Positions 2-55,317 of a stretch of 64,000 nucleotides of DNA are shown here, one piece after another; the first letter of the stretch is position 1, and each line of letters opens with the position of its first letter. The position numbers were made by a program, and so were the translations under genes. This DNA comes from a virus, in the IMG/VR virus record IMGVR_UViG_3300025881_000008, positions 40,075-104,074 of that record; one strand, written 5' to 3'. Below the pieces are notes generated by a model that saw only the letters and a program-made list of their open reading frames with translations, searched no databases and was not told the DNA's origin.

Positions 2-1054
2 TTTACCATACTCTACTCCAATTTTTTTATTTGTTTCAGCTAGCTTTCTGGCTAATAGTGATTCTGTAATTGCCACTGGTGATGAGGCTTTATAAAGAGG
101 CATTCTAGTAATAGTGGCCAATGTTAATAGAACTTCCATTGATCTTAATTGCTTGTCTATATAATAAACCAAACAGGAGTCAATTACGTTGTAGTAGACA
201 TATTTAGTAAAATCATTTTCATAAAGATCTTGTAATGAACCTGTGTATTTAATTTTGGTAACATCTAAAACTGCACCTGACACAAAGTCTAATGAGTTAG
301 ATTCTTTTACCGCAACTGATCTGTCATATTTGTCATATAATTGCATGTAATCTAAAATACCCATATGAAGAGGTCTACTATCATTTCTGTCAAGTGATCC
401 AGTGATCGCCACATCAGTCAGGTCGATCTGAAGTCTCTTGCAACGATTAACTATATACTGCCAGTCATAGTTGATAAAATTCCATCCAGTCATCATTGGG
501 AACTTAGGTAAAAACTTATGCAAGAATGTATATAACATATTGTACTCATTATCAAATTTATGATATGAGAATTCCCAATCTTGATCATAGTTCTTTAGGT
601 GGGCATTAGTATCTTTCTCAATTTTAGCAATCTGCTCTGATGTTAAATCTTCAAGACCTAATACAATTGCTTTACGCTCAGGCGTGATGATCGAGAAGGT
701 TAAGATACGTGACTTAGCCTCTTCTGGTTTTGGGAAACCATCAACGATTTCTGTTTCAATATCGACGAAATATGTTCGAGGCATATTGAATTCATAAATC
801 TCTTCTTTATCTGCCGCTGGCAGGCTATCCATAAAATAGAGTAGACTGAACTTATTAAATGACTTAGCGATACCTCTTTTTAGTGGGCGATTGTCCCAGT
901 TTCTAAAAGTCTTATCCTTATATTTATCTTTTTCTTCTGTAACTACCCAATTTTGGAATTGGTTTACAGTGTATCTTTTAAAGGAAACTTTACCCTCTTT
1001 GTCATAATAAGAGATGATAAGTTCCTTGTCAGTTTGTTCAATGTCTAATAGCAT
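2..1054 (-). CDS. Family B DNA polymerase (T4 gp43-like), N-terminal and 3'-5' exonuclease part; runs off the left edge of the window
   Basis: Hand translation from the ATG at 1054 (TAATG overlap with the dUTPase stop) gives MLLDIEQTDKE..., with ExoI YFVDIETE, ExoII MTGWNFINYDWQY and ExoIII YNVIDS. The frame is open to the window edge. Confidence 0.9.
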   Translation of the reverse strand, partial: MLLDIEQTDKELIISYYDKEGKVSFKRYTVNQFQNWVVTEEKDKYKDKTFRNWDNRPLKRGIAKSFNKFSLLYFMDSLPAADKEEIYEFNMPRTYFVDIETEIVDGFPKPEEAKSRILTFSIITPERKAIVLGLEDLTSEQIAKIEKDTNAHLKNYDQDWEFSYHKFDNEYNMLYTFLHKFLPKFPMMTGWNFINYDWQYIVNRCKRLQIDLTDVAITGSLDRNDSRPLHMGILDYMQLYDKYDRSVAVKESNSLDFVSGAVLDVTKIKYTGSLQDLYENDFTKYVYYNVIDSCLVYYIDKQLRSMEVLLTLATITRMPLYKASSPVAITESLLARKLAETNKKIGVEYGK

Positions 1055-1521
1055 TAGTAGCCTCTTTTTTGACGGTTCTTATTTTCTTCTGCTTTTGCGA
1101 AATAATAATTATATGCTGTCTTTGCATCGAGGCCAATTGATGCCGCATAATTAATAAAGAAGTGCAATACATCAATCCACTCCATAAAAAGTTCTTTACG
1201 ATCATCTTCTGATAGATCAGAAACTTTTATTGTCTCGTACTTTTTAAAGTCTGCTTTCCAGTATTTCCAAACTGCGTTCCCTGAGCCATCTTTAATGCCT
1301 CCTAATGCGTCTGTCATTTCGTGTAGTTCATCTATCACTGCATGTGTGTTAACATGCCAGAAGTCCATTACCTCGCGAATAGACATGTTCTCAAACTTAA
1401 TGCCATAAGTTTTTTCTTGCATCTCTTTTTGATGAGACATAATGTCTTCTAAGTGTGTCGTTGAATCATTGTAAAAATCTTTTACTTCAAGATCTTTGCA
1501 TTCGTTATCTATATTTGCCAT
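1054..1521 (-). CDS. Dimeric all-alpha dUTPase/dCTPase (T4 gp56/MazG-like superfamily)
   Basis: DELHE, WKYWK and EWIDVLHFF motifs plus a C-terminal K..EN..RQ..GY; adjacent to the DNA polymerase. Confidence 0.85.
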   Translation of the reverse strand: MANIDNECKDLEVKDFYNDSTTHLEDIMSHQKEMQEKTYGIKFENMSIREVMDFWHVNTHAVIDELHEMTDALGGIKDGSGNAVWKYWKADFKKYETIKVSDLSEDDRKELFMEWIDVLHFFINYAASIGLDAKTAYNYYFAKAEENKNRQKRGY

Positions 1522-1571: not shown

Positions 1572-2468
1572 TTATTTGTCCATTTCTAAAACTTCTCCCC
1601 ATTCTCTTTGAGAATTAGTTTTTTCTTTAGTTTCTTCTGATTCTGGATAGGGTTGTCCACCTACATTCCAAAACCATGCACCGGGCGTTCCGTGTTTTTT
1701 CATAAATTCCCAAGCTTTAGCATCATAGTTCATTGCAGATGGAAATGGTGGTGCGTATTTAGGATTTACATCAGCGGCAAATGCCTTAGGATGTGACCAA
1801 ACTTTTGCTTTACCTAATTCACCATCTTTAATATTCCTAGATACTGCTACTGCGTTAAATTGAGCATCTGGCCATGCAATCTGCAAAGAGCGCTGTAATA
1901 CGCCTGTTGAAATAGCAGACCAAACCTCTTCGGGGTATCCATGTTTTTCTGCAATATCATACGCTACTTTAACAGCCGCTGCTGTTACTAATTCATGTTT
2001 TAAACCCAATGGTATAAAAGTTGCATTGTTTGCTTCCGCCCATTCTTTTGCTATTTTATTTAAATTTGGCATGGCAGCAATTCTTCTGAACTTAGGTATT
2101 GCACCCCTCTCAATACAAATAGCTTGATGATCTGAAATTACTTTACCTGAAGGCATAAATAAAACCAGTTTCTTGTTATACTTATTTGCCAAATAAGCAA
2201 GAGAAATTCCCGCAAATCCAAATCTGGGCTGTACATAAACTAATGTATCTGTTGGTGCTTTTTGAACTAAAATATCTCCGAATCTACATTTGGATCCAAA
2301 CCCCATCATATCATCTCTGACTACATTGAAACCATCGTGATTCATTATAATAGGATCTTCTAGTGGATCTTTCCAGTCACCAGCTAAATCTAACCATGCT
2401 TGTCTATTTGGCATCATTAGATTTAAGTCTTGGTTCATTTTACTTGTTGTGTGAGTATCATGTGCCAT
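1572..2468 (-). CDS. PLP-dependent enzyme, fold type II (PALP), similar to phage DNA-hypermodification decarboxylases
   Basis: VVRDD...GSKCR (Schiff-base Lys), GFAGISLAYLA, phosphate loop ISTGVL, YDAKAW and FWNVG. Confidence 0.75.
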   Translation of the reverse strand: MAHDTHTTSKMNQDLNLMMPNRQAWLDLAGDWKDPLEDPIIMNHDGFNVVRDDMMGFGSKCRFGDILVQKAPTDTLVYVQPRFGFAGISLAYLANKYNKKLVLFMPSGKVISDHQAICIERGAIPKFRRIAAMPNLNKIAKEWAEANNATFIPLGLKHELVTAAAVKVAYDIAEKHGYPEEVWSAISTGVLQRSLQIAWPDAQFNAVAVSRNIKDGELGKAKVWSHPKAFAADVNPKYAPPFPSAMNYDAKAWEFMKKHGTPGAWFWNVGGQPYPESEETKEKTNSQREWGEVLEMDK

Positions 2469-3141: not shown

Positions 3142-4346
3142 ATATTAGCTACCATTTTTTTATATTCTTCTACTGAAACATTAGCAGATTGTAGTATTTT
3201 ATCATCTGACGGGAATGAAGTCATGCCATTAAATGTTTCAACTAGACCTAAGTCTAACATTGCTTTTTGTCTACCATACGGATGGTCTTTGATAGAAGAC
3301 GAGTTCCATAAAGTATCCATGTTAATATGTGCATAATCAGCACCAGGTCTTAGATAGTTTTCAATCCATCTAATAAAGTCGCATGCAACATCTTCTGCAT
3401 TATATGGCAATGAACCAGTGTCTTCGTATATTTTAGTCATTACTGCATCTAGAAACGGTTCACTTCTTTTACCTTTGTAATCGACCGGATCTGCTAAATA
3501 ACCAATACATTCTACTGCATTTGTGCCGTAATAGAACATTGATTCTCTGTTGATATATTCTGGGTACCAGTCAGCCACGTCTGCAATAACAGCTGCGTAT
3601 TGGAATTTATATTGTCTCAGTCCGTTTGCAACATTCCAATCAAACATCCATTGACCAAGTTGTCTTAAGTCTTTTTTACCACCATCTCTCAAATAACCTG
3701 CCATGTCTCTAGCCAATCTTGGTGCAAATTCACACAAGAAATAATCCCCGCCTCGTTTATAGACATATTCTGGTTCTTTAAATGATGACATACCAACAAA
3801 ACTATCCTCATTTTGAGTTGGTTGTGGAGGTTTAGGAAATGCTGGAAATTGATAACCAACTGAAGTGTAGAATGGCGTTGGGTGGTATTTTACCTTTTCA
3901 CACATTTCTTCAATTGTATCGCAATCGTGTAGATCAAATAGGATTGTATTATGATAACCAGATGGTTTGGTAGCGTAGTTAATTGCTGAGCCACAAACTC
4001 GATGGAGAATAAAAACATACAACCATTCTTCTAGGCCAAAAATATCTTGTCGACTAGTCCAATTTTTTGCAACCTCTTCTCTTTGGGGGTAAATTTTACC
4101 AGCTTGCATATGTTGCCAATACGGATGTTTATCTGTCCATCCATAAAAACAATCATTTATAATTTGACTAAAACCAGCATACTTTCGTTCCACAACATCA
4201 TACAGTTGTATATGTTCCATTAAAGGATCATTCATACCACTTTCATCATGTGGCACCATGCCTAAATTACTAAGCTCTTGTTGTTTTAATGCTAAATTAA
4301 AATACCTAATAAATTCGTCATAATATTGGGTTGTCTTAATTTTCAT
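3138..4346 (-). CDS. Divergent 5-hmdU DNA kinase helical / aGPT-Pplase1-like (HhH-fold) DNA modification protein
   Basis: The motif order DPLMEHIQLYDVVER ... FQYAAVIAD ... YGTNAVECIGYL ... AEDVACDFIRW parallels DPIL..Y.F.NV.R / F.AY...D / GPGA..GL / IE..LCE..KY as recalled for aGPT-Pplase1. ATG at 4346 preferred over TTG at 4355. Confidence 0.55.
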   Translation of the reverse strand: MKIKTTQYYDEFIRYFNLALKQQELSNLGMVPHDESGMNDPLMEHIQLYDVVERKYAGFSQIINDCFYGWTDKHPYWQHMQAGKIYPQREEVAKNWTSRQDIFGLEEWLYVFILHRVCGSAINYATKPSGYHNTILFDLHDCDTIEEMCEKVKYHPTPFYTSVGYQFPAFPKPPQPTQNEDSFVGMSSFKEPEYVYKRGGDYFLCEFAPRLARDMAGYLRDGGKKDLRQLGQWMFDWNVANGLRQYKFQYAAVIADVADWYPEYINRESMFYYGTNAVECIGYLADPVDYKGKRSEPFLDAVMTKIYEDTGSLPYNAEDVACDFIRWIENYLRPGADYAHINMDTLWNSSSIKDHPYGRQKAMLDLGLVETFNGMTSFPSDDKILQSANVSVEEYKKMVANI

Positions 4347-4500
4347 TTTGCTCAATTATTTTCCATGCAAATGGATCTCTATTTCTAGCATATTCATCCA
4401 TTGACCATTCTATATCACCAGTGGTAATTTCTATACTATATGATGCATCCGTAGCATGATATGGTGTTATCTCTATCTTGTATAATTTAGTGTATTTCAT
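4336..4500 (-). CDS. Small hypothetical protein (54 aa)
   Basis: Hand translation MKYTKLYKIEITPYHATDASYSIEITTGDIEWSMDEYARNRDPFAWKIIEQNEN; fills the gap between its neighbours. Confidence 0.7.
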   Translation of the reverse strand: MKYTKLYKIEITPYHATDASYSIEITTGDIEWSMDEYARNRDPFAWKIIEQNEN

Positions 4501-4501
4501 T

Positions 4502-5572
4502 TTAAAATAATGCTGTTTGTATTTGTACTACTTTTAGTTTTTTATTTGGTTCATTATTAACAAGATCCCATCGATAAAATTCTCTAGCGATGTGAACTGA
4601 TTTAGGTTTTTCCATTACATCAAAACTTAACTCACCAATCGGATTTTTATATGCACCTGAGTGTTTCCATGTACTCCATCCATTGCGAGTACACATATCA
4701 ACAATCATTTCATTCATAAGTTTCACAAGATCAGTTCTCTCTTGCCAAGAACCAGCAAATGGGGTGTCTTTATAATAACCAGTCTTTGGTAATTGCCTAG
4801 ACTCATTCTCAATTGGCAATGCTTGTATAACTTCAATGGTTTTAATACCCGATTGTTGAAGTGTTTGTTCATATTGCACCATCATCTTAGTCAGTGCTGA
4901 TACGGGATCATCCTGTCGCATTAAATGATGTCTTATGTCGATATTACCAAGATATATCCTAAGCTCATTAGTCCATGGGTATACATAATCTAATAGACCT
5001 CTCTTTAGAGTTCCAAATAGAGTTAAACCATCATTACGATTGACCATAAAACCTGGCGTATATTGACTAAAACTATGTGAGTCTCCAAAGCAAAGCTTAT
5101 CGGTCTTTTCAATATGGTCTACTCTTTGGATTCCAGAGCAAATCTCTCTAGCCTCTTCAATTCTAGTCTCAAGTGTTTTAAATAGTTCCGAGCCAGTCTT
5201 TAATCTCTTCTCAATTAATTCTGCAATTGAAGGCATATCATGATGTAGTGAATACATCCTAGGACCTTTAGTAAAAAGTCTATTAATCTGGTGGAATAAC
5301 TCGTCGTTAGCCCCGCCGAATATATTGAACGCACCTTTATATTCCATACCATGCTCAAGAAGGACTACATCAAATTCCGACCAGTCCGTAGTCCAATCTG
5401 TAATTACAGTAGCATTCTTATAACCAGCATTTACCAATTGGTTACACAGCATAAAAGCCCAACCAGACTTATGTGAGCTTGGCTTAGGGCTTAATTTACC
5501 AACAAGTGCAGATATTGCTATCTTAATTGACTTGTCAGATTCATAATCTGTAAAGTATTTAAAGTTCTGCAT
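4502..5572 (-). CDS. Putative fusion of a T4 beta-glucosyltransferase-like N-domain and an SGNH-hydrolase-like C-domain
   Basis: N-half KIAI...FNIFGG...MYSLHHDMP resembles BGT KIAI...INFFGG...IYYLFTDIRLP. C-half has CFGDSHS, LGNID and KSVH (SGNH blocks I, III, V). Likely start is MQNFKY at 5572; the ORF is open to 5611. Confidence 0.5.
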   Translation of the reverse strand: MQNFKYFTDYESDKSIKIAISALVGKLSPKPSSHKSGWAFMLCNQLVNAGYKNATVITDWTTDWSEFDVVLLEHGMEYKGAFNIFGGANDELFHQINRLFTKGPRMYSLHHDMPSIAELIEKRLKTGSELFKTLETRIEEAREICSGIQRVDHIEKTDKLCFGDSHSFSQYTPGFMVNRNDGLTLFGTLKRGLLDYVYPWTNELRIYLGNIDIRHHLMRQDDPVSALTKMMVQYEQTLQQSGIKTIEVIQALPIENESRQLPKTGYYKDTPFAGSWQERTDLVKLMNEMIVDMCTRNGWSTWKHSGAYKNPIGELSFDVMEKPKSVHIAREFYRWDLVNNEPNKKLKVVQIQTALF

Positions 5573-5870
5573 CTTCTGTACCCATTGGTTTTTCAGTTTC
5601 ACCATAACCATACTTCTTAATATAGTTATCTAAGCCACCGATATACGCCACTGCGTCAAGTAGATTGTCTTCTTTATAATTATATGAATGTCTACTTAGT
5701 TTTAATGCAACAAGTGCTGCGTACATGTCCGCTCCGGTGAATTCTTTACCAGTCATTCCGCCACAAATCATTGCAGCTCGGCGCATGCCTTCTTCAAAAG
5801 GACCATACATGCGTTCTTTCTCTTCTGAACGATGATTAATAATTTTGTCTGCTTCGTTTAAAATATTCAT
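5559..5870 (-). CDS. DUF6378-like all-helical protein (nucleotide-modification associated)
   Basis: IL.EA..II...R...YG.F ... LKLSR.....K.DNLLD..AY pattern. Confidence 0.7.
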   Translation of the reverse strand: MNILNEADKIINHRSEEKERMYGPFEEGMRRAAMICGGMTGKEFTGADMYAALVALKLSRHSYNYKEDNLLDAVAYIGGLDNYIKKYGYGETEKPMGTEDAEL

Positions 5871-6133: not shown

Positions 6134-6164
6134 AAAAAAAGGCCAAACAAAAAAATGTTTGGCC
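6134..6164 (-). terminator. Intrinsic terminator, possibly overlapping a host-type (Bacteroidetes TAnnTTTG-like) promoter
   Basis: Perfect 9-bp stem GGCCAAACA/TGTTTGGCC followed on the minus strand by T7, then TATATTTAC at 6123-6131. Confidence 0.7.
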
Positions 6165-13089: not shown

Positions 13090-14817
13090 TTAGCCTAATG
13101 AGCTAGTCAGCATACCGACTGCTACGCCATAATCACCCTTAGATTTAGCTAAGATGCCATCAATTACTTTTTTTGCTTTAGCCTCATCAAATTCTTCACC
13201 AAATGCTTTTTGTAAAACCGTGGTTGCATATTCGTTAAATTCTTCATCAGATTTAACTTCAGCTTCGTTTACTTTAGATTCAACAATTGCTTTAACATCT
13301 TTTAGTTTGATGCTTTCGCTGTCAATGTAATCCATTGCCATACCTACTAAATCATCTGAATCTAGATCGTACTTGTCTTCTGCATAATATTCATCGTCCA
13401 TTAATAAATCATCACAAATATCTCTTAAAGTATCTGCATCTTGGTCATAAAGAAAATCTTCAATTTTGTTTAATTCAGACTTAGATAGTTTTTCGTTAAC
13501 TACTGATTCTTCGATATATTCAGCTAGATCTGCATCAGCCCATCCTAATTCTTCATCAGCTAATACTGCTTCAAGATCTTTTCTCTTACCTTGCATTGTG
13601 ATAACTGGAGTTCCGCCACCTGGACCGTCCATCTTTTTATCAATAATAGTAACCTTGTGTTTCTTTAAGAATTTTAAAAAGTCTTTATCATCTGGATCCA
13701 TTGCATCCATTTCAACAGTTGCTTCACATAAAATATCAGCGTTTTCAATAACAATACTTTCGTTAAAGAATCCATTAAATGCGTTCAATAAAGATTGACC
13801 CGCTGCCTCTTGTTTAATTTGCTCTAAGTAAAGTGCAGTACCTTCAACGATACCGATACCTGACCATCCTGCTGCGTTAGCAATATCAGAATAGTATTTG
13901 TCTAGTACTCTCTTAACTGTAGTTGCACCGATCTTAATAAAGTGATTACCTAAACCTGGCATTTTAACTTCAAAGGTACTAATAGAACCTTTAATATTTT
14001 TAGAGATTGCAAATCCTTCTCTTGAGAAGTTAGCATCTTCCATTGCCATTTCAAATAAGTACTTAATACATCCTAATACTGATTCATTTGACATTGCACC
14101 CAAGTCAGTTAGTTTTTTTGCAAACAAGTTATTGTAAACTGTAACAACTTTCTTAGCATCTCTCTTGTATTTTACCTGAATCGCCTCATTTACTGAAACA
14201 GAAACAGATTCAAATGCTGGATATAAGTCATCATAGCCATTGCCATAAATATCAGCCATTAACCATTGCTTGTTAGCTTCGTCCCAAAGGTAAACGAATT
14301 CTGCGCTGCTATTGGTAGCTACATCTCTCAAATATTTAGAAACGTTAGCGATTGAACCCTTTGAAGGTGTCATTGCATTTTTATCTCCGTAAAAATTCAT
14401 CTTATCAATACTATCTTCTAAACCTGAACAATCTCCCTTTGCAATAACAGCATCAACTGCTTTTGGGTTTTTAAAAGATTTCTTAATAATAGGTAACATG
14501 TTTTCTGGATAAGAATCGTAATGTGTATAAATTGAAGTGATATTACCTTTCTTATCTATTTTACCAAATTGACCTCTTGTGCCCTCTTCGATAAGTGTAA
14601 CTGCTTCGTTAATTTCAGCACCTCTTAATCTATTAAAAAATTCTGATCTTTGCTCTTCTGTCAATTCTTTGATTGAAGCTACTTTAAATTCAGATAAGAG
14701 TGCTTTAAAAGCCTCTGCTTCATTAGTTCTTTTTACGATCTTTTCTTCTTCTAAGTGTCTAGTTTGAGAAATCTTTGCTTCGGTAGCAAATTGATCAAAT
14801 GATTTTAACTTTTGCAT
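13090..14817 (-). CDS. Acidic multidomain probable head-internal protein
   Basis: MQKLKSFDQF start; TR..FG...IYTHYDSYP phage domain; domains separated by xNE sites. Confidence 0.6.
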   Translation of the reverse strand: MQKLKSFDQFATEAKISQTRHLEEEKIVKRTNEAEAFKALLSEFKVASIKELTEEQRSEFFNRLRGAEINEAVTLIEEGTRGQFGKIDKKGNITSIYTHYDSYPENMLPIIKKSFKNPKAVDAVIAKGDCSGLEDSIDKMNFYGDKNAMTPSKGSIANVSKYLRDVATNSSAEFVYLWDEANKQWLMADIYGNGYDDLYPAFESVSVSVNEAIQVKYKRDAKKVVTVYNNLFAKKLTDLGAMSNESVLGCIKYLFEMAMEDANFSREGFAISKNIKGSISTFEVKMPGLGNHFIKIGATTVKRVLDKYYSDIANAAGWSGIGIVEGTALYLEQIKQEAAGQSLLNAFNGFFNESIVIENADILCEATVEMDAMDPDDKDFLKFLKKHKVTIIDKKMDGPGGGTPVITMQGKRKDLEAVLADEELGWADADLAEYIEESVVNEKLSKSELNKIEDFLYDQDADTLRDICDDLLMDDEYYAEDKYDLDSDDLVGMAMDYIDSESIKLKDVKAIVESKVNEAEVKSDEEFNEYATTVLQKAFGEEFDEAKAKKVIDGILAKSKGDYGVAVGMLTSSLG

Positions 14818-14850
14818 ATTATTGTTTTATTTTTATATGTTATTATTTTA

Positions 14851-16359
14851 TTATATATCTCCTTCAAAATCGACATTTTTAATATCGTATTTGAATTTCT
14901 GTTCTCTATAGATGCGTTGACGCTCCTTTGCATGTCGCATTAAATAATTATCCCAGTCCTGAGAAGATAAATCATCTACAAAATCAATAATATTAACAGA
15001 GTCCTTTGAGCTATGTTGTCTCAGACCTCTACCAATTGATTGTCTAATAATTACCTCTGATTTAAATGATTCTGTAAAGAAGATGTTATGTATTTTCTTA
15101 ATCGAGATACCCGTAGAGAAGGTACCGTATGAAGCGACTATGACGACATCTTCACCTGCCTCCATTTTTTTCTTATGTTCTTCGCGAATATCTTGATCAA
15201 TACCTCCATCAACATAGTAAACTGTTTTATCACTTTCTCTGCGAAGTTTTTCATATATTTTTTTACCATGCTCAATGCGATGGAAAAGGACGAGACTATT
15301 ACCGCGTACTCTGGAAATAATACTAGTAATAAAGTTAAGGCGGCCTGGTGAATTGATAACATAATTCTGCTCAAACTTAAAAACATCTTTGCTTTCATAT
15401 CTGTTTTGGGACATTTCTCTAAACGCATCTTTAGTAGATTGCGGAGCATAGTCCATTTTTATAATTTTTACTTTACATCCTGCGATATGCCCCTCATTTT
15501 GTAGATAGTTTGCACTAATCTCTGTAATTAATGGACCTGTATATGCCATAAGTGTTAGCCTATCTAATGTACCTTCTTTTGGTATAGTACCAGATAAACC
15601 ATACTTGTATTCTGCGTTAACACATTTTTGTAAGATGGTTTTAATAGAAGCTGATTTTGCTTTGTGGGTTTCATCGACAATAACTGCGTCGAATTGTTCA
15701 AAATATGCCTTTTCTTTTTTAACAAGAGACTGATATGTACCGATAATAACATTTCTACCTGGCCTAATTTTTTGGCCGCTATAAATCTGCTGTACTTTAA
15801 TATCTATTGCATTCCTGTAATTATAATCTAGGAAATCTTCGCTAGCCTGTACAACCAAAGAAACATTGGGCACGATGAATAGTATTTTTCCTGCCTTTTG
15901 CTTTTCTAGTAGATATGCAACTGTTAAAAAAGAGATGAGTGTTTTACCAGCAGAAGTTGCCAATTCACTTAAACATCTTTTAAATTTTAGAATATTGAAT
16001 GCAGCCTCTATTTGATAGTCTCTCGGGGTAATTTCTGATTTTTCAAAGAAATCAATTGCCCATTGGGTAAACTTTTCTTGATTAATATTGGTATCGAATA
16101 TTTCTGTAATACCTTCGAGTTTAAACTCAAATTTATAGTCCTTGCATATACCCATGACTTCTCTCCATAGACCGGAAGGAATCCACTTATCATCTTTAAT
16201 ATAGGAAACATAACCGTCCCACAACCCTTTTTTAACTAAGGGGTTGAAACGCCATGACTCAATCCTCTTATTAAGAGAAATATTGAGTTGTTCTAATTCT
16301 AATTCAGTTGCTACATCAATACGAAGCAACTGTTTGTTTTCAGTTAAACTAAGCTCCAC
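14851..16359 (-). CDS. uvsW: UvsW-like SF2 DNA helicase
   Basis: PRDYQ, ATSAGKT, VDETH, GLSGT, ASYGTFSTGISIK and QSIGRGLR. Confidence 0.93.
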   Translation of the reverse strand: MELSLTENKQLLRIDVATELELEQLNISLNKRIESWRFNPLVKKGLWDGYVSYIKDDKWIPSGLWREVMGICKDYKFEFKLEGITEIFDTNINQEKFTQWAIDFFEKSEITPRDYQIEAAFNILKFKRCLSELATSAGKTLISFLTVAYLLEKQKAGKILFIVPNVSLVVQASEDFLDYNYRNAIDIKVQQIYSGQKIRPGRNVIIGTYQSLVKKEKAYFEQFDAVIVDETHKAKSASIKTILQKCVNAEYKYGLSGTIPKEGTLDRLTLMAYTGPLITEISANYLQNEGHIAGCKVKIIKMDYAPQSTKDAFREMSQNRYESKDVFKFEQNYVINSPGRLNFITSIISRVRGNSLVLFHRIEHGKKIYEKLRRESDKTVYYVDGGIDQDIREEHKKKMEAGEDVVIVASYGTFSTGISIKKIHNIFFTESFKSEVIIRQSIGRGLRQHSSKDSVNIIDFVDDLSSQDWDNYLMRHAKERQRIYREQKFKYDIKNVDFEGDI

Positions 16360-16808: not shown

Positions 16809-17030
16809 CTAAAATAATGATTTCTTGCTAGGATCTGGTTTGATAAACTTAGAGATTATTTGTCTCTTTTTAAATTTGGGTTTTGGAAACTCTATATCTG
16901 GTGAATTAACTGTAAGATCTAATGGTTGAAAATCAATTAAGAGTTTCATACCTTTAAATCTATCACTGTCTCTTTGAAAATCGTCTAAGTTGTCTTCAAC
17001 CATATTACTAATATCTTCTATACGTACCAT
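16809..17030 (-). CDS. Hypothetical protein
   Basis: ORF tightly packed between primase and uvsY. Confidence 0.55.
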   Translation of the reverse strand: MVRIEDISNMVEDNLDDFQRDSDRFKGMKLLIDFQPLDLTVNSPDIEFPKPKFKKRQIISKFIKPDPSKKSLF

Positions 17031-29800: not shown

Positions 29801-32800
29801 TTTAGTTTCTAAATAATCTCCTACTGAAATTTCGCTTAATGTTGTATTGTTTATGTAAACTGATTTACTAGTAGAATTACCTCCGTTTAAATAATGAGCA
29901 TCCCACTTAGAAAGAATGTAACCCGCACCTTTTCTTAATTTTAAAATATTATTAAAATCAATATTGTCAACATCTATAAAATCAATTACATTTTCTTTGT
30001 TAACTAAAACAGCATGTTGTAATAACCTATATCCAGGAACCCTAGCTTTAACCCAAAGATCAGACCCGATATTATAAGCATCTAAAGGACTATCATCTGC
30101 ATGAATAACTCCTGCTAATGCAGAGGCAATATCACTTAATGTACCTTGGTTAGAGAAGAATTTTCCACTATAAGTTCCTTTCGGTAAAGTATAATTAGCA
30201 GAATATGTTCTGTTTTGAATATTAATATTGGTTTGAATTTGATCAACTCTTATTATAGAACTTATAGCTCCGGTTACCGCCATGTTTAGATCACCTAGGT
30301 TTGTTTCAATCTCAGTTAAAACAATAGACTGTGATTGATAATCAAAACTAATGTGGTAATTACCAACAGCACTAGTCTTTCTGTAGATTGTTATTTTATC
30401 TGGATCACTTATCGCCGACTCAATATTACCAGCAGTCTCCTGAAGAGTAGACCCTAACAATAAAGAATTATCAAATAAATTGTGAGTTCCCTGTGAATCT
30501 TCTAATCGAATATTAATACCCTCTCCCGGTGTTTGTTTAATAAAAGTAAATTTATAAGACTCCTCTCTTGATGCTACCACAGCAATTTTATCATTACTGT
30601 CTGGCACATCTACAATAGACATTTTAACAAAATCGTAGCCTCTTTCGTCATTTTTTATTAGATCGACAGATTTGCCAGTATGTGATATACCTATAGTGCT
30701 AGGAATATCTCCAGTAGAATCATCAATTCTAACTTCTAGATTTAGAGAATCATAAAGACCTGAATTAGATATCTTATAGTATACACCATTAATTAATACA
30801 TAACCAAGTGTTGGCGTAGTACTCATTTGTTTATGTGTTGGAATTGCAGTTGTTGGTTTACTTGGATTTACCAAAGACGAAACCCCTGCGAATTTAATAA
30901 CATTATTAGATATTGAACTTATTTCACCAAAGCCCGAATCTATATCATCTACGTAAAGACCGAAATACCTATTAATGCTATAATCGCTAGAATCATTATC
31001 ATCAAATAAAAATTCTAAGTTTAAAAGATTGGCACATAAAATATTGTTTCTTCTAAAACCGTCTGTGATAAAGTCATTAGCTTCAATTAAAGCTTTATCA
31101 GTCTCTACGAAGTCTTTGTAGATATATTCACCCTTACTAGTTAATTCACCAGAAGACAAATCAATACCATTATAGTTAGTAACTTCATTTTTGCCAAGCG
31201 AAACAGTAATAGGTGATTTAGGGAATGTTTCCTGTTGTACATGTGCCCTGATGTATTTACCCAGGTTTGATTTTTTAGATAAATCAAAAGTTTTGATAAT
31301 CTCAGCGTTCCTTAATATCTCTTGAATCCTCCTAGCATTGTCTAAAGTAACACCAGATGCATCAACACCCCCTGGGTTTTTAACTTTAAATATAACAAAA
31401 TTGTTTGGCATGTTATTATCAGCCCAAATAGGTGCCAACATCCTATAACTCTCATCGTAGTTTTTAGAATAATTATATGTAGTACCATATTGATACTCTT
31501 CCTCTATTTGTTTATTATAAGAATCTAATACTGTCAAGTCCGACTCAGATCTTTTAGTTAAATAAACAAGATCAGATGTGGTGCCGTTTTTCTTAAAGAA
31601 ATTAGCAACATCGGTTGAATAATTACCATTAGGATTTATTGGACTCTTCTTGTATTTTATACCAGCTAAATCTTTACTAGCACTGATACTTTCCATATAA
31701 ACTGAACCATCTGAACTTGTAACTAGTTTAACGTTACCTGATAATTTGGGGTTAGTTCTTAATAGTGGTTTAGCTACATTGTCTAATTTATAGTTAGTTT
31801 CTGTTTTAAAGTTTGGTCCAGCAGAAACAGTTTCATAACCCTCAACAAACGGGAAAGTATATGTAGTTGTAACGCTTGAATTATCACCTATAACACAGAA
31901 ACTAGATGCTATACTTTCATATACATCAACTTTAACTTCACTACTTAAACCTATTTCAACGCCAGCTGAAACAACTGGCCTTTGTTGAGATGTGATACCT
32001 GAATCCTTAAGCAGGGCAATGGCATCGTCAATATCTTCTGCGGTTATTTTAACACTATACTCTAAACAACTATCAAAGCCGCTGGTCTTGATTACATTAC
32101 CAAATGATAAAGTATCAATAAATGTTTTTATATAGCTACCAGCATCACTAGAAACGTCCGTGTGTAGTCCATTAATAACATATATTGGCCAGAATAAAGT
32201 TTCTGTATTATTACCAGCCTCAGGCCCTTCTATTTCCGGATTTAATGAATAAAAACCATAAAATACATTTATATCATTTACACCAGGTTCCGGTCTAGAT
32301 ATGGTATTATTAGTTATGTTGGGCTTTATATAAGTCGAACACTGACCACTCGATACTATACTTGATCCGGAAACAGTAAGTCCGTCTGAGTCATAACCAT
32401 ACCATTTTAAATTAGCGCCATCGCCTGGATTTTCCCAAATTAAATAGCCAGAAAGATCATTAAACACATTTGATTCAAATAAATCTATTTGATCTTCGCT
32501 AGTTGCACCTAATTCAGTTTTATAAACAGGTGTGTTAGATTTAGCTAATCCTAAAAGATCAGTAAAAGGCGCAGTACCCTCTGGTCTAACATACCACAAA
32601 GTGGTGTTCGTAACAACGCCGTTACAAAATTCATTTATACTAGGATCTGATAAATTTGATTTGTTAGCTACTAAACTATATGTAACGTTAACAATATCCT
32701 CTTCACAATACCATTCAAATGTTCCGATAGAAGTTAATCCCCAATCATTAACCAAAGATCTTTTATAATATGTGCCAGCAGGAGCTTCGCTGTAAATACC

Positions 32801-34418: not shown

Positions 34419-37400
34419 TTATGTGGCGAATCTCGTCAACTTTGCGGCTCTAATAGAATTTAAGTTTTTACCCTTAGGACTGTATTTAGCGAATACTTCT
34501 AGATCAAATGAGAACTGTTGATCATATTTATCAAATATATCTAAACCAATCTTTTTGGTATATGTTAAGTTAGGGAATTTTAGTTTAGCCTGTCCACCGA
34601 TTCTACCAATATCACTTGAAGCATCGTTACCGTAATAATCAGTCATTCTATATTGGAATATGATATCAACAGACAATGCATTGGAATTATCTAATGTGGC
34701 TACTCTACCCTTAATTTCTTTTCTACTCTGCTTGCTGTCACCGCCAACACTTAATGTATTTAAGTTAATCGGTGATAAGAATAAGAAAGCTCCACAAGAA
34801 CGACCACCTAAAAGATATTGATCATTAGCGCCAAACGACATTTTAAAAGTCCTATCGCCTTCTGTTATTAAATTAGAAGTTTTTTGGAATGCTAATTGTT
34901 TAGTAGCTTTAATTGAATTAACAGCAGATGGTGAAAAAGAATTTCCAATTAATGGACTACTATATACAAACGAAGTTCCACTCGCATACGTTGCACTTAT
35001 AGGCATCGTATATATTGCATTGTTAACCATTGATTGTATATTAGCCCTTTGCTCAGTATCACTAACATTATTTTCGTTTACTGCAGTTTCCTGTGCATCA
35101 GCGTATAGGTTTTCTAAATCCGGGTGGTCTTTATGAATAAACAAACCGTTGTTGTAATTTGCAGAACCTATTAATGCAGACGATGAAATACTACACACAT
35201 CAACTTTTGCTGCTGAAAATTCTCCGCTTAAGTTAGTTACTCCGCCATTATTGTATCTGCCAAAAGTTCCTGTCCATATAAAATCAACAGATGTACCATT
35301 ACCAGTTGGAGTAATTAAATCTACATTTGACGTCAATGGTTGGAATTCCGCGTAATTTAGTGAGTATTCATAATTATTTAATGAAGATCCCGTAGTAGAT
35401 AATAGAGACTCTGTTATGTATAGTGGGTTTTGATTAGAAACATCCATAAATCTAGAGTATACAAATTGTCCACGTCTTTGTGCCGATTGATATGGTGCTT
35501 CAGCCAACAAATCATAAGATTGAATCGACTTAGAATCTATATTTTGATATTGAATAGGAACCAAATCATATTTACCTTCTGATGTATAATAGTTGTCTGA
35601 GCTTATTTTATTATCTGTGTCATTTGCTCCATTATCATTTAAGGTAACACCAAACCCGTTATCTGCAATAGCAGAACCTGCTGCAGAAGATCTGTATGCC
35701 GGTAGATTTCTATCACCAACCAATCTAGAAACTAATTCTAATTTAGTGGCCTTGGTGTTTTCTAATAAAAGTTTAAATGTTTTAGTAACAATATGTCCTT
35801 TCTTAACTGTTAAACTTGCAACCTCATCTGCGTAATATCCAGCGAAGATTTGATTTTTAGTACCGTTATTAATAACAGTAACCGTACCATCCTCGTCCAT
35901 GATTTTAACAACCAATTCACCGATTTCAACTTCAACAGTACCTTTAAGTGCTGCTATTTGTGCTTCTAATTCGGCAATCTTATCATATACTGAAATTGGT
36001 TTTTGTTCAGCTGAAAGAAAACCAGACGCAATACTTGTAGCGTTGTGCGCATAATATTTTTCATTAGCACTAAAACTATCATCGATATGTGTAAATACGC
36101 CTTTAGATGTTAATTCTTCTGAAATTTTAACAGCCGCGGTTTCAGCAGCATTTGATAATAATAAAGATTCAACATTAGTTGTATCGATTTCTGTAATAGG
36201 GAAATCAATAGTGATTGCTTCTGACCAATCAGAATAAATCGGGTTAGCAGGATAACCAGCTTCAGAAACGGATTTAACTCTAATCTCTACTAATTCACCT
36301 TCGTTAATTGCAATATCTAATTGGTTAAAGTTAACCTCTTGCGCATCTTCAACCAAACTATTTTGCCACTCAAATTTATTTGTAAATGAGTTTCTATATC
36401 TGTCCCTAGCTTTAGTTTTAATTTCATTCCAATTTGAGAATACAGCTGTTTTCTCTCTAGTACCTTCGGTAAATGGAAGTTGAGTAACTTCACCTGCTTT
36501 TCCACTAGTAGACAAGTATCTATATTGTATAACAAATTGGACAATATTTTGATCTACTGTATCTGCAACTTTTTTTGCACTTGGTACAGACCAGAAACCT
36601 CTAACTCTGTATTTAGGCGTAACATTAGTTGCATTAGTACCTGATGCTAAAGATTGAATTTGATTAACAATACTGTTATAAAGATTAGTTTCACTAGTCC
36701 TCTCAGTAATAAGAGAGCTTAATTCATTTTTGTCTTTATCTTTTTGAATATTAGATTCATATTTCTTAGTAGAAATCTCAGATCTCTTTTTAACAATAGT
36801 TTCATCTAACTTCTTAATCTTTTCTTCAACGTTAACCTTATCAGCTGAAAGTTTCTTAATCTTGTCAGCCGCATCATTCGCTGTTAGGTGCGAGTTAATT
36901 TGTACTACCTTAAAGTTGTTAAGATTTAAGGTTGGAGAGTCTGGGGTAATACCCTGTGCTGCCGGTGGGATAGCATCCTCTTTAAGAGCGCTGATGTATC
37001 TACCAAAGTCAGCAACTTCAGTTTTGTAATAGTCATCAAGTCTAATTTCTGAGCCATCAGCCTGAATCAGCGTTAATTCATTTGTATATAAGCCAATACC
37101 AGGTGACCAGTTTTCAGCTAATATTTTTGAATCCGGATCTATTGCCTTAACAAAAACTATCATCCTCTCGTTAAATCCTACATTAAGGTCGATGTTTAAA
37201 TTAGCAACATCGTTTTTATAGATACCTAATTGATTCGCTCCGATTTTAATAGACTCATAACCCTCAACCGTTAATAACTCAACTTGATTAGTTGAACCAT
37301 CAACTCTTGTAATTTTATATCTAGTGTTCTTAGTGCCGCTCTGAACCATAAGTTCATCACCTGCTTTTAATACCTCAGTATCTTTAAGATCCTTAGTGGC

Positions 37401-51934: not shown

Positions 51935-53310
51935 TATTCGTATACATTTTCGTTAAGTGAATTATCTGCACTACTGTCAACACCTGGTGTATAAACTCTT
52001 TCGCCTAAGTTTCCGTCTGGGCTACTATCAACAGCAGGACTGTCGTACATGTTATTAGGAGTAATATTACCCTTTTTAGGTTTATTAGATTTACTTTGTG
52101 TAAACTGTCTAGCTAAATTTATAACACCATTAATACTACCAGCTTCAAGTGCGGTATTAATATCACTGAGTGTTCCTAATGCACCACTAGCGCCATGTAC
52201 ATTATCTAAAATTAGCGCCTTTACTTTATCCATACCAGCATTCGCCAAACTAGCTGCCGCCCCCGTTAATCTTTCAGGATAAACAGCACCCATTGGATTT
52301 TTACCAAAACCAGGCAAACTATTTTTTAAATTATTAAATCTATTTACCAGCGAACCGGCGATACCATTTACCTTATCACTAATTGCATTCTGTGCATTTG
52401 CCAGTGGATTAAATGGAGACTCTGGATATAAACCATCTCCGGGTTTTGCCCCGGGTATAAGATCTTTATCATCAACTAACGATATATTTTCTCCGAATTT
52501 TTGATTAGTTAATAATGCAGTTTCCCATGTAAAACTTAATTTAGGTCTCTTTAATTCAGGCATCTTAGATGCATCTGCAAACATGTCTGCAATTGAATCT
52601 TGTTGCCATTCACAATGACCTAATTCAAACATTAAATAAGGTCTGGCATCTGCAGTAAATTGACTAACTAATCCAACATCAAATTTTCTACCATTTTTAT
52701 CAATATTAGTTTCAGAACCTTTAGCTCTAGGAATTATATTTACAGATTTACCTTCGTTGTTTTTTGCCATTGGGGATCCATATAAATCTAAGTCCCTGGC
52801 ACCAGTATCTTGTTGAAATGTTCTAACTTCTGACATTACTATCCAAACCCTAAAACGTCTTAGGTTTTTAGGTAGTACTTCAATATATCTTTCATAATCA
52901 TAACATGCCTTTTTATATAAAGACATTAGGCCAATTGCAGTTAATTCAATATTCTCTTCTAAACACTCAATATCGATTTTAGGTTTTTCAGAACCTCTCC
53001 AAGGCTCATCCATTTTACCGTATGTTTGTGTTAATTCTAGACCGCTAACCTTTTGCCAAAACCAGGGCATTTCAGTATTAATCTTCATCAAAACCTTTTT
53101 AAAGTTTTCAAGATATGCAGCGTAGTTAGTTCCCATTGGACCATCGACAAACTTTTCTAAATACTCTTTTGCAGGACCTGACATCAAAGGAGAGTGCTCC
53201 TTATCTACAGTATCAAACATGAGAAAAAAACTAAGATAAGTCGGATCCTCATTGATCTTTCTTAAAATAGAACCTTTTCTAAATTCATTAATATGTTTAA
53301 AATCTGCCAT
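51934..53310 (-). CDS. Tail/baseplate structural protein (possibly tube-initiator-like)
   Basis: Position between hub and spike; WFWQKVSGL...IDIECLE tube-like segment. Confidence 0.4.
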   Translation of the reverse strand: MADFKHINEFRKGSILRKINEDPTYLSFFLMFDTVDKEHSPLMSGPAKEYLEKFVDGPMGTNYAAYLENFKKVLMKINTEMPWFWQKVSGLELTQTYGKMDEPWRGSEKPKIDIECLEENIELTAIGLMSLYKKACYDYERYIEVLPKNLRRFRVWIVMSEVRTFQQDTGARDLDLYGSPMAKNNEGKSVNIIPRAKGSETNIDKNGRKFDVGLVSQFTADARPYLMFELGHCEWQQDSIADMFADASKMPELKRPKLSFTWETALLTNQKFGENISLVDDKDLIPGAKPGDGLYPESPFNPLANAQNAISDKVNGIAGSLVNRFNNLKNSLPGFGKNPMGAVYPERLTGAAASLANAGMDKVKALILDNVHGASGALGTLSDINTALEAGSINGVINLARQFTQSKSNKPKKGNITPNNMYDSPAVDSSPDGNLGERVYTPGVDSSADNSLNENVYE

Positions 53311-53337
53311 ATATTATGTATCCTTATTTTATTATCC

Positions 53338-55317
53338 TTATTTATTAGTAATGGTAACCGATGTTGTATTAGTAAACGTTTTACCTTCTGCTTGTATTGT
53401 AATAGCAAGATCGTATGTTTGGGGGTCAAACTCTCCTGTTTGTGAGAGATCCAACACCCACGTTCCATTCTTTTTAACTCGCATTCCGTAAGACGGACCG
53501 ATTAATGTATCATCTATCTCTGCTTCCCAAAAATCAAATGCTGCAACTTCTTTATTTGCAGTCCAAGTACCTTCAAATACACCATATGTGCTATTACCAA
53601 ATGTAGCCTGAATATCTTGTTCAGATGTGGTTTTAGTAAATCCTATTTCTAACTCTAATTCAACACTAGGCGTTGGCTCTGGTGTCGGTTCAGGTGTTGT
53701 TGCTGGAGTCGGCTCTGGAGCAGGTTCTGCAGCTGGACTATTCTCTTTAATATTTTCAGCCTTTTCTTCATCAGTAGCATCTTCTAAACCAGGTGGATTA
53801 ATTAGGTTTTCAGTTCTAGTTGGCCATTCTCTCCTTAATAAAGTTACAACTTGTCTAGTACCTTCATTATTATAAGTATAAACTATATCTTCTATTATGT
53901 AATATCCAGATAAAAAAGTATCTAATGCTTGTTTAGGTAATCTATCTGGATCCATATCCGGATCCGCTCCTAAATCAAATGGCTCATCTTTGTCCATGCC
54001 GAGTTCCTTTTTATCTCCTTTGATTCTCTCGTTTTGATAAATAGATTTCTCATCAACGTGATACATTAATACCGGTATTTTTTGATATTTATACAACGAT
54101 GGATTAAATGAGTTCAATGTAACCTCTAGTTTCATTTTCTGAACCTCCATCTCATTTTGTTTATTATGCAATTGCGCAAACGCTGCATTAGGGTGAACAT
54201 TACCTAAACCATCGTCACCAGCTTCTTGCCTACCAATGTATTTATATTTAACTTGATCAACATGTCTAGCATCATTTCTGTTACCTCTTAATGGCTCTTC
54301 TAACTCTTTTAAATCATTACCCCCGAGCGGCTCGATTCTAAATTCTTGTTTCTTATTATCACCATTATTATCATAAATAGTAACTTCTCTAGCATATCCC
54401 GCAATTGTGCTAATTGTACTTGCATTGTTTATAATCTTATTAGATTCGATAAACGCGTTATTACCCATAAATGCAATATGGTTTGTTAATAATAAAGGAA
54501 CCTCTATGTCATTACCAGTACCGCCTTCCTCGGCTTCTTTAGCTGACTTAGCATCAGGTGTCATAGACTCCGCTGCAGATGCCAATGATTCAGCAAACTC
54601 TGAAATCGGGGGATTTGGAGAATTAAATAAAGCATTAACATCGACATAATTAAGATAATAATATGAATCAATCCACCACTTTTGAAATGATTCCTCGCCA
54701 ACGTAACTGTTTTTAATAATAGAGTGTATGAAATCTATATAAGGAGTATATGCCATTATTCTAGATTGAGAATCATCTGCGGCATCGATGTTTGTTGCCA
54801 TTCCAATTTCTAAATCCCTAGCAACCTGTTCTATATGGTCCAATGAAGTACCATTTTCGAAATTAACACAATCTTCAGCAAATAGCCTAGGAATTTTACA
54901 GTGGCCTTCTATTGTAAATGTAGCAGCCTGAACATTACCCTGTTTCGGTGCGCTGCATTCAGTTATGTCAAAATCCATATGAATAGATTTAAACGTCTCT
55001 TGATTTTTGGAATTAATTAATACAGTAAAAAAATCACCATCTCTAGGATAACTGGCAACACCAAATTTTCCAGCGCTGTCTTGTAATACTAATCTACAAG
55101 TAGGCACTACTTCAGTTAAGTTTAGCTCAAATAAAGTAACATCAGCCGGCTTAAACTGATATCCATTAATAAGAATCATTGGCTGAAGTGTCGCTATAAC
55201 CGAAGTTTGCTTGTAATCGGCCTCATCTGGTTTCTCTTCAGCTAACGCATCAATTTTTATTTCTGTCGGTCTAATAGCCGGTTCGACTACTGCTAATATA
55301 TTGTTTGCTAATTCCAT
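53338..55317 (-). CDS. Baseplate hub protein (gp27-like)
   Basis: PTCRLVLQD, WIDSYYYLNYVD and LSGYYIIEDIVYTY...LLRREW; PT linker plus an extra C-terminal domain. Confidence 0.6.
   Translation of the reverse strand: MELANNILAVVEPAIRPTEIKIDALAEEKPDEADYKQTSVIATLQPMILINGYQFKPADVTLFELNLTEVVPTCRLVLQDSAGKFGVASYPRDGDFFTVLINSKNQETFKSIHMDFDITECSAPKQGNVQAATFTIEGHCKIPRLFAEDCVNFENGTSLDHIEQVARDLEIGMATNIDAADDSQSRIMAYTPYIDFIHSIIKNSYVGEESFQKWWIDSYYYLNYVDVNALFNSPNPPISEFAESLASAAESMTPDAKSAKEAEEGGTGNDIEVPLLLTNHIAFMGNNAFIESNKIINNASTISTIAGYAREVTIYDNNGDNKKQEFRIEPLGGNDLKELEEPLRGNRNDARHVDQVKYKYIGRQEAGDDGLGNVHPNAAFAQLHNKQNEMEVQKMKLEVTLNSFNPSLYKYQKIPVLMYHVDEKSIYQNERIKGDKKELGMDKDEPFDLGADPDMDPDRLPKQALDTFLSGYYIIEDIVYTYNNEGTRQVVTLLRREWPTRTENLINPPGLEDATDEEKAENIKENSPAAEPAPEPTPATTPEPTPEPTPSVELELEIGFTKTTSEQDIQATFGNSTYGVFEGTWTANKEVAAFDFWEAEIDDTLIGPSYGMRVKKNGTWVLDLSQTGEFDPQTYDLAITIQAEGKTFTNTTSVTITNK

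Follow-up and report, generated by a model that had tools for sequence, protein, structure and literature searches.

The gene at positions 4502–5572 (minus strand) of a 64,000-nucleotide stretch of viral DNA, hereafter the window (IMG/VR record IMGVR_UViG_3300025881_000008, positions 40,075 to 104,074), encodes a protein of 356 residues (P0001) with two domains. The N-terminal domain is homologous to that of the DNA beta-glucosyltransferase (BGT) of phage T4, and the C-terminal domain has an SGNH fold. We are highly confident of this architecture, and it is very likely that the protein functions in hydroxymethyl-pyrimidine DNA modification. We tentatively favour the reading, to which we give slightly less than an even chance, that the protein O-acylates 5-hydroxymethylcytosine (hmC) in DNA and thereby activates it for substitution. 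The specific step of O-acyl activation is possible rather than probable. If translation began at the ATG at 5611, farther upstream, the protein would have 369 residues instead. The gene and its parts are as follows.

4502–5572, minus strand: gene of the two-domain BGT-SGNH protein, 356 residues, defined by the open reading frame (ORF) and its translation, an AlphaFold2 model and 400 homolog clusters
5123–5572, minus strand: N-terminal domain, residues 1–150, homologous to the N-terminal domain of T4 BGT, with conserved S33-H34, YD68, N83-x-F-G-G87, P114 and R123
4505–5122, minus strand: C-terminal SGNH-fold domain, residues 151–356, with Ser165 (codon 5078–5080), Asn210 and His327 (codon 4592–4594), and invariant D164, H166, D212, R259, R279 and E321
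4505–4516, minus strand: disordered C-terminal tail ending in TALF, a possible sliding-clamp-binding motif; the last residues have a predicted local distance difference test (pLDDT) score of about 60

The initial annotation, made from the DNA letters, had divided the protein into segments of about 150 and 190 residues and listed the motifs that suggested this division. All of the motifs are present (KIAI 17–20, FNIFGG 82–87, YSLHHDMP 107–114, GDSH 163–166, GNID 209–212, and SVH 325–327), and the division agrees with the AlphaFold2 model, in which the N-terminal domain comprises residues 1–150 and the SGNH domain residues 154–343, approximately. The model, calculated from an alignment of 122 homologs with sequence identities of 28–62%, contains two packed domains. 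Its pLDDT of 96.6 and predicted template modelling score of 0.93 indicate that the domains have a defined mutual orientation.

The assignment of the N-terminal half to the BGT N-terminal domain, in the register first proposed from the MKIAI start and the NxFGG loop, is borne out by profile comparison. The family profile aligned to a profile of 30 BGT family members using hhalign with a probability of 97.2% (E 4.6e-11), residues 14–123 of the protein matching residues 1–118 of BGT. An independent alignment of the N-terminal domain, built from IMG/VR loci, matched BGT with a probability of 96.3% (E 1.9e-9), and an unrelated profile used as a negative control scored 0.05%. The program VIA-align ranked BGT second out of 48,161. 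The alignment pairs the MKIAI start and the YD motif, as well as the N-x-F-G-G loop, an invariant feature of both families (N70, G73, and G74 of BGT correspond to N83, G86, and G87). Folded alone from the independent alignment, the N-terminal domain reached a pLDDT of 93.1. Foldseek comparison of this domain with the PDB gave weak matches to CheY/flavodoxin structures (E ≥ 6e-3) and none to BGT, and comparison with BFVD gave only the protein's own family; therefore, the link to BGT rests on the profile–profile comparison and VIA-align.

The hhalign match ends at BGT residue 118, and residues 154–343 of the protein fold as an SGNH domain. Like T4 BGT (PF09198; PDB: 1c3j), the protein is two-lobed and begins with a Rossmann-like domain, the counterpart of the acceptor-side domain of BGT (residues 1 to about 165). 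In contrast to T4 BGT, it lacks the C-terminal UDP-glucose domain with R191, R195, R269, and E272, of which R191, R269, and E272 are invariant in the BGT family, as the initial annotation had inferred for the domain; the SGNH domain stands in its place, and the protein is not a glycosyltransferase. It is conceivable that the BGT-like domain binds a nucleotide, sugar, or inositol phosphate, the ester of which is made or trimmed by the SGNH domain so as to prepare a donor or nucleophile for a DNA transferase partner. We consider such a small-molecule enzyme unlikely, because the profile match is specific to the DNA glucosyltransferase family, the small-molecule neighbours of the gene differ between lineages while the gene itself stays, and the C-terminal tail of the protein is like that of the phage polymerase.

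The C-terminal half has the alpha/beta/alpha fold of SGNH enzymes, and the proposal of an SGNH domain is upheld by both its fold and its conserved Ser, His, and Asn. Foldseek identified 53 PDB structures similar to residues 154–343 with E ≤ 1e-3, headed by sialate O-acetylesterases, GDSL lipases, and platelet-activating factor (PAF) acetylhydrolase. In the model, G163-D164-S165 of block I directly follows the strand 159–163 and aligns with the GDS motif of TesA. The GNID motif follows the strand 203–207, as expected for block III in the SGNH fold; its spacing is unlike that of the GxND of block III, and the candidates for the glycine of block II are G182 (84/122) and G187 (104/122). Alignment by hhalign to Escherichia coli TesA, alone or as an alignment, covered the GDS block only; the TesA alignment added no sensitivity, because the homolog search gave only sequences with 78–98% identity. 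The pattern DxH...GNxD...HH had also raised a metallophosphoesterase as a candidate, which was rejected as a fold assignment on the confident SGNH model.

The residues expected to carry out the chemistry are nearly invariant among the 122 homologs. D164, H166, and D212 are conserved in all of them, as are R259, R279, and E321. The Ser of GDSH and the His of SVH, which the initial annotation had singled out, are retained in 121 (S165) and 120 (H327) sequences, G163 is present in 120, and N210 in 109, with Ser replacing it in a further ten. R214, H216, and R219 are each retained in 109–121 of the homologs. The conserved residues of the N-terminal half are S33, H34, N83 (113/122), G86, and G87 (112/122). 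Characterised SGNH O-acetyltransferases and esterases (OatA, PatB, sialate O-acetylesterase, PAF acetylhydrolase, and TesA) differ from the protein, which has no Pfam match, lacks the Asp of the DxxH motif, and contains the additional invariant residues H166, D212, R214, H215/H216, R259, R279, and E321. Furthermore, it resides in the cytoplasm and shares its chain with a DNA-enzyme domain, and a base in DNA, its presumed acceptor, would be unprecedented for the SGNH fold.

The structural matches of the SGNH half also include the Oskar OSK domain and a tail protein of phage N4 (9lc0). These would suit an ordinary phage esterase directed at peptidoglycan or at glycans of the host envelope, such as the SGNH domains found in phage tail proteins, or a non-catalytic nucleic-acid-binding protein like OSK, the DNA-modification context then being coincidental. 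Either is very improbable. The gene lies in a replication and nucleotide operon outside the structural module, its homologs are fused to HMUDK_hel and FkbM domains, and its catalytic residues are nearly invariant, whereas those of OSK are not so conserved.

An exhaustive HMMER search identified 400 representative clusters of homologs at 50% identity with E ≤ 1e-3, 185 of them with E ≤ 1e-30, and nearly all 400 align over both halves of the query. A search for proteins of near-equal length gave 633 clusters at 90% identity, and the family is present in at least 592 IMG/VR stretches. The neighbours of the protein in the ESM Atlas are 100% viral. The 43 matching records from cultured phages belong to T4-like Aeromonas phages (44RR, 31, and 25 groups), two Stenotrophomonas IME13 records, and three Tenacibaculum PTm records, with the match in the PTm phages limited to the C-terminal half. 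The protein itself belongs to two PHROGs of unknown function. A Pfam scan relaxed to E 10 still assigned it to no family, PDB sequence searches, whether with the protein or with the family profile, turned up nothing beyond noise, and megablast of the gene region against phage genomes gave no match. When the 122 homologs were scanned one by one, the recurrent Pfam families were Lipase_GDSL_2 (10), Lipase_GDSL (10), the AT3-associated SGNH domain (6), and T4-Gluco-transf (4).

The gene is part of a minus-strand block that begins after a hairpin and ends with the N-terminal part of a family-B DNA polymerase (PolB) that is split. The other features of this block, in the order of transcription, are listed below.

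6141–6164, minus strand: intrinsic-terminator-like hairpin between the preceding gene and the cassette, 9-bp stem with five GC pairs and a T-run
5559–5870, minus strand: DUF6378 protein, upstream neighbour (PF19905, 38.6 bits), present in nearly all of 80 related IMG/VR loci, down to loci of only 40% identity
3138–4355, minus strand: u405, a conserved downstream partner of 405 residues, no Pfam family; directly after the BGT-SGNH gene in all close loci and fused to it in locus L077
2470–3141, minus strand: LOG/SLOG-family protein (PF03641, 110.9 bits), present in approximately 9 of the 80 loci
1572–2468, minus strand: fold-type-II pyridoxal-phosphate (PLP) enzyme, PALP-like (PF00291, E 6e-5, below the cut-off; phrog_7093, E 8e-38), syntenic in close loci
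1054–1521, minus strand: all-alpha NTP pyrophosphohydrolase, MazG/dUTPase-like (phrog_173, E 2e-13), syntenic
2–1054, minus strand: N-terminal part of the split PolB, end of the cassette (PF03104, phrog_2062); the C-subunit is encoded in the parent contig (G000), upstream of the window

The synteny comparison covered the 80 related loci, and the order DUF6378, BGT-SGNH, u405, PLP enzyme, MazG, and PolB is retained in the close relatives. The MazG/dUTPase-like protein probably clears the dNTP pool. LOG does not belong to the core but is an accessory, because it occurs in only about nine of the 80 cassettes; one possible activity is hydrolysis of a canonical dNMP as a nucleotide N-glycosidase. 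No neighbour of the BGT-SGNH protein is more constant than the DUF6378 protein, whose sequence pattern gives the impression of a small all-alpha NTP pyrophosphohydrolase; the PHROGs label "phosphofructokinase" of related families looks like a mis-annotation. The two parts of PolB (2–1054, minus strand, in the window and 34833–36041 in G000) are separated by several kilobases, and the polymerase of phage 44RR is also split, into 43A and 43B. A 54-residue ORF (4336–4500, minus strand) lies in the 146-nucleotide gap between the BGT-SGNH gene and u405. BLAST gave no match to it in the 80 related loci, where a gap of similar size is kept, and it may not be a gene.

Relatives with approximately 40% identity have a different set of neighbours, in the order thymidylate synthase (TS)-like protein, DUF6378, dUTPase/DCD-like protein, BGT-SGNH protein, myo-inositol-1-phosphate synthase (MIPS; PF01658, 78 bits), a small ORF, an HMUDK_hel protein, and PolB. 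The HMUDK_hel protein has 480–520 residues and, in L060, matches PF18723, the helical domain of 5-hydroxymethyldeoxyuridine (5-hmdU) DNA kinases, with 36.8 bits, above the cut-off. The MIPS gene directly follows the BGT-SGNH gene in L060 (9175–10368), L073 (9053–10255), and L081 (9080–10273), usually with an FkbM-type methyltransferase alongside. The cluster of the complete 293-kb genome G006 additionally contains an FkbM-type methyltransferase, a C5-DNA-methylase-like protein, and an NAD-dependent sugar epimerase. The MIPS and FkbM genes hint at a DNA adduct derived from inositol or methyl-inositol; we found no precedent for such an adduct. The C5-cytosine-methylase-like protein of G006 (PF00145, 70 bits; L073, 12837–14015) is odd beside an enzyme of dCMP-hydroxymethylase type if all cytosine is replaced.

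Fusions connect the BGT-SGNH protein to the same partners. Protein P0135 combines FkbM, HMUDK_hel (43.1 bits), and BGT-SGNH domains, and L077 encodes the BGT-SGNH protein and a u405-like protein as one ORF of 786 residues. In Aeromonas phages, a protein of 795–807 residues (ORF233c of 44RR) joins the BGT-SGNH protein to a C-terminal half that contains a VPYFHPNRS motif common to HMUDK_hel-like proteins and matches PF18723 weakly. Among the 30 ESM Atlas clusters nearest to u405, 22 have PF18723 annotations (11–14% of the members in three listed clusters), and further clusters have PF18724 (ADDT). PDB profile searches with both partner families were negative, and the HMUDK_hel-like partners have no genuine Walker A motif. 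Gene context and fusions together place the BGT-SGNH protein in hypermodification cassettes, in keeping with the hydroxymethyl-pyrimidine setting that had been proposed initially.

The invariance of this core bears on whether the SGNH domain puts on an acyl group or removes one. A tailoring esterase would act on an intermediate that a partner of the amino-acid:DNA transferase (AADT) type had already put on the base, and would cut from it an ester such as an acetyl or aminoacyl protecting group. Most characterised structural matches of the SGNH half are esterases, and the conserved catalytic residues and the DNA-pathway context agree with this function equally. However, the BGT-SGNH protein and the AADT/HMUDK_hel-like protein constitute an invariant, often fused core around which the tailoring genes vary, which fits a core step better, and a tailoring esterase would leave the activation step without an enzyme, since no kinase is seen nearby. 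We regard the tailoring esterase as fairly unlikely, and as less probable than activation of the base by acylation.

The modified base is probably hmC rather than 5-hydroxymethyluracil. The TS-like genes beside the BGT-SGNH gene in L060, L062, L069, L070, and L073, and the divergent TS-like gene of the close relative G002, contain the motif RSNDxxFGxxxD with Asp at the position of Asp179 of T4 gp42. In the canonical ThyA genes of the same or related genomes, this position is Asn. We take the residue at this position to discriminate cytosine from uracil in thymidylate synthases and dCMP hydroxymethylases. The choice of hmC follows from the associated hydroxymethylase being of the dCMP (Asp) type. 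A divergent TS-like gene was found in all five further genomes checked (44RR, PTm1, G006, G007, and G008), and that of 44RR, which adjoins the split polymerase, is annotated as gene 42. In the T4 genome, b-gt adjoins gene 42 and is near gene 43, which makes the neighbourhood of the BGT-SGNH gene comparable to that of b-gt. The base 5-hmdU, considered at first from the HMUDK_hel context, was downgraded on the Asp at the gp42 specificity position of the TS-like genes.

In the mechanism that we propose for this soluble enzyme, the N-terminal domain, derived from the acceptor-side domain of BGT, would be the part that docks on DNA, at a 5-hydroxymethyl-pyrimidine that is most likely hmC. Because the UDP-glucose domain is replaced by an SGNH domain with intact Ser165, His327, and Asn210, the acyl transfer is expected to proceed through an acyl-Ser intermediate. 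Acyl-Ser165 would be formed and the acyl group moved to the 5-CH2OH of the base, where the ester would provide a leaving group. The adjacent or fused AADT/HMUDK_hel-like protein would then displace the ester with a nucleophile; characterised AADTs employ an exocyclic methylene intermediate after attack of a Cys at C6 (PMC8989533). The esterase-fold enzyme would take the place of the 5-hmdU DNA kinase of thymidine pathways, and variable tailoring genes would shape the adduct: the PLP enzyme and LOG here, and MIPS and the FkbM methyltransferase in relatives.

5-Acyloxymethyl pyrimidines are reactive and labile, and would make a poor stable mark of virion DNA. This lability, together with the obligatory AADT-like partner, which favours substitution chemistry, makes it improbable that the ester is itself the final mark, a 5-acyloxymethylcytosine such as acetoxymethyl- or aminoacyl-oxymethylcytosine, with the partner doing something else. 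Such a product would nevertheless be compatible with the architecture and conservation of the BGT-SGNH protein, and the DNA-base acetyltransferase gp48 of PaMx11 is a precedent for it (PMC8989533).

Several observations weigh against acyl activation of hmC. The initial annotation had taken the N-terminal half to be the base-recognising half of BGT with its Asp; the homology stands, and the Asp is not kept family-wide. T99-D100, invariant in BGT, is the proposed catalytic base, and this dyad is not conserved throughout the BGT-SGNH family. D112 pairs with D100 of BGT in the close-subfamily profile only, the broad profile has gaps there, and position 112 in the 122 homologs is most often Pro (43), followed by Asp (19), Glu (18), and Lys (13). 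In block V, His327 is present, and the residue three positions before it is Gln, Arg, or Lys in place of the usual Asp of DxxH. The invariant D164, H166, D212, and E321 could mean a different chemistry, and a metal-dependent variant of the SGNH domain is conceivable. No acyl donor is evident, as the cassette contains no acyl-CoA or carrier-protein gene. The 104-kb contig from which the window was taken has no match to Thymidylat_synt, HMUDK_hel, ADDT, Tet_JBP, or Thy1; since the contig is 34% complete, this absence is uninformative. With no hydroxymethylase, Tet/JBP, or ThyX in the contig itself, the case for hmC in this phage rests on its relatives. On the evidence of the embedding search, u405 probably belongs to the AADT/HMUDK_hel superfamily; its comparison with the HMUDK_hel-like partners by hhalign was negative and a Pfam scan of 17 u405 members gave nothing consistent, so the superfamily link serves as a lead only. 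No P-loop DNA kinase is annotated in the cassettes, the whole genomes not having been searched with a kinase model, and one could be encoded elsewhere in the genomes.

The known entries to post-replicative pyrimidine hypermodification are glycosyl transfer, as in T-even phages and RB69, and a DNA kinase followed by an AADT, as in M6, ViI, and PaMx11. The thymidine hypermodification phages M6, ViI, PaMx11, and phiW-14 use a 5-hmdU DNA kinase, an AADT, and tailoring enzymes (PMC8989533). Their pathways and the BGT-SGNH cassettes share a hydroxymethylase, dNTP-pool enzymes, an HMUDK_hel/AADT-like protein, variable tailoring that includes PLP enzymes, a location near the polymerase, and multi-domain fusions. 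In contrast to the thymidine pathways, no P-loop kinase is seen in the BGT-SGNH cassettes, where the place of the invariant partner is held by the BGT-SGNH protein. Their hydroxymethylase belongs to the dCMP (Asp) type and not to the dUMP type, no TET/JBP source of 5-hmdU was found in the contig of the window, which is 34% complete, and the tailoring set of MIPS, FkbM, fold-type-II PLP enzyme, and LOG is not known from earlier descriptions. The family points to a third entry route to pyrimidine hypermodification, paired with a transferase-like protein and with no kinase seen.

Some T4-like phages that have gene 42 and lack alpha- and beta-glucosyltransferases modify hmC in another way. RB69 carries arabinosyl-hmC, a non-glucose decoration (PMC6024577). 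Phages with the BGT-SGNH protein resemble such RB69-type relatives of T4 in their gene content, but RB69 decorates hmC by glycosyl transfer, and the BGT-SGNH protein has no glycosyltransferase catalytic domain. Three phages of Aeromonas (44RR, 31, and 25) possess genes 42 and 56 and no glucosyltransferase, and it was unknown in 2010 whether such phages modify Hm-dCMP otherwise (Petrov et al. 2010, PMC2993671). The BGT-SGNH protein is a candidate answer to this question of the fate of hmC, which is directly testable because the three phages are cultured.

The combination of a BGT N-terminal domain with an SGNH domain had been flagged as not known to be characterised, and we likewise found no paper that describes it. 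Our literature searches for SGNH/GDSL or BGT-like domains in hypermodification cassettes, and for inositol-phosphate synthase in hypermodification, returned nothing. Lee et al. 2021, whose metagenome survey took kinase homologs as its starting point, make no mention of SGNH/GDSL or BGT-like domains. The family is widespread and viral-only, and in it the sugar-donor domain of a DNA glucosyltransferase appears swapped for an acyl-transfer domain. In its fullest form, which is doubtful, our proposal is that the protein is a DNA-base O-acyltransferase and the first SGNH enzyme to act on a DNA nucleobase. Tethered to the clamp, it would act on hmC at the replication fork of marine T4-like phages and of Aeromonas phages 44RR, 31, and 25, replacing ATP-dependent phosphorylation in the making of new cytosine hypermodifications derived from amino acids, inositol, or methyl-inositol. 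New base chemistries are of relevance to phage resistance against restriction and CRISPR, and as tools for labelling 5-hydroxymethylcytosine.

A tether to the sliding clamp may be provided by the C-terminal ...ALF tail, which resembles that of the polymerase. Homologs of 330–380 residues end in LF in 131 of 215 cases. LF is the commonest C-terminal dipeptide in the contig (7 of 97 ORFs), and the PolB C-subunit of the same phage, which is homologous to the C-terminal part of gp43 (E 4e-21 to T4 gp43 and 9e-26 to 44RR gp43B), ends in ...SALF. The fusion protein of 44RR ends in SLDGLFAI, and T4 gp43 in SLDFLFG, which we take to be its clamp-binding tail. These endings support, short of proof, a tethering of the protein to the sliding clamp, and LF may be a lineage-specific clamp-binding signature. 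Other ORFs that end in LF encode a 423-residue protein (...KKLF), a 144-residue protein, and two small proteins in the window (16809–17030 and 53262–53468, both minus strand); the LF-ending ORFs in G000 outside the window, that of the PolB C-subunit among them, are at 13688–14959, 30704–31138, and 34833–36041. The ...DDLF tail of the NrdB-like protein probably has a different role. In 44RR2.8t, the gene directly upstream of the fused BGT-SGNH homolog, ORF234c (L001, 5438–6961), encodes a sodium:solute symporter (SSF; annotated as similar to a sodium/glucose cotransporter), which may import a small molecule for the modification.

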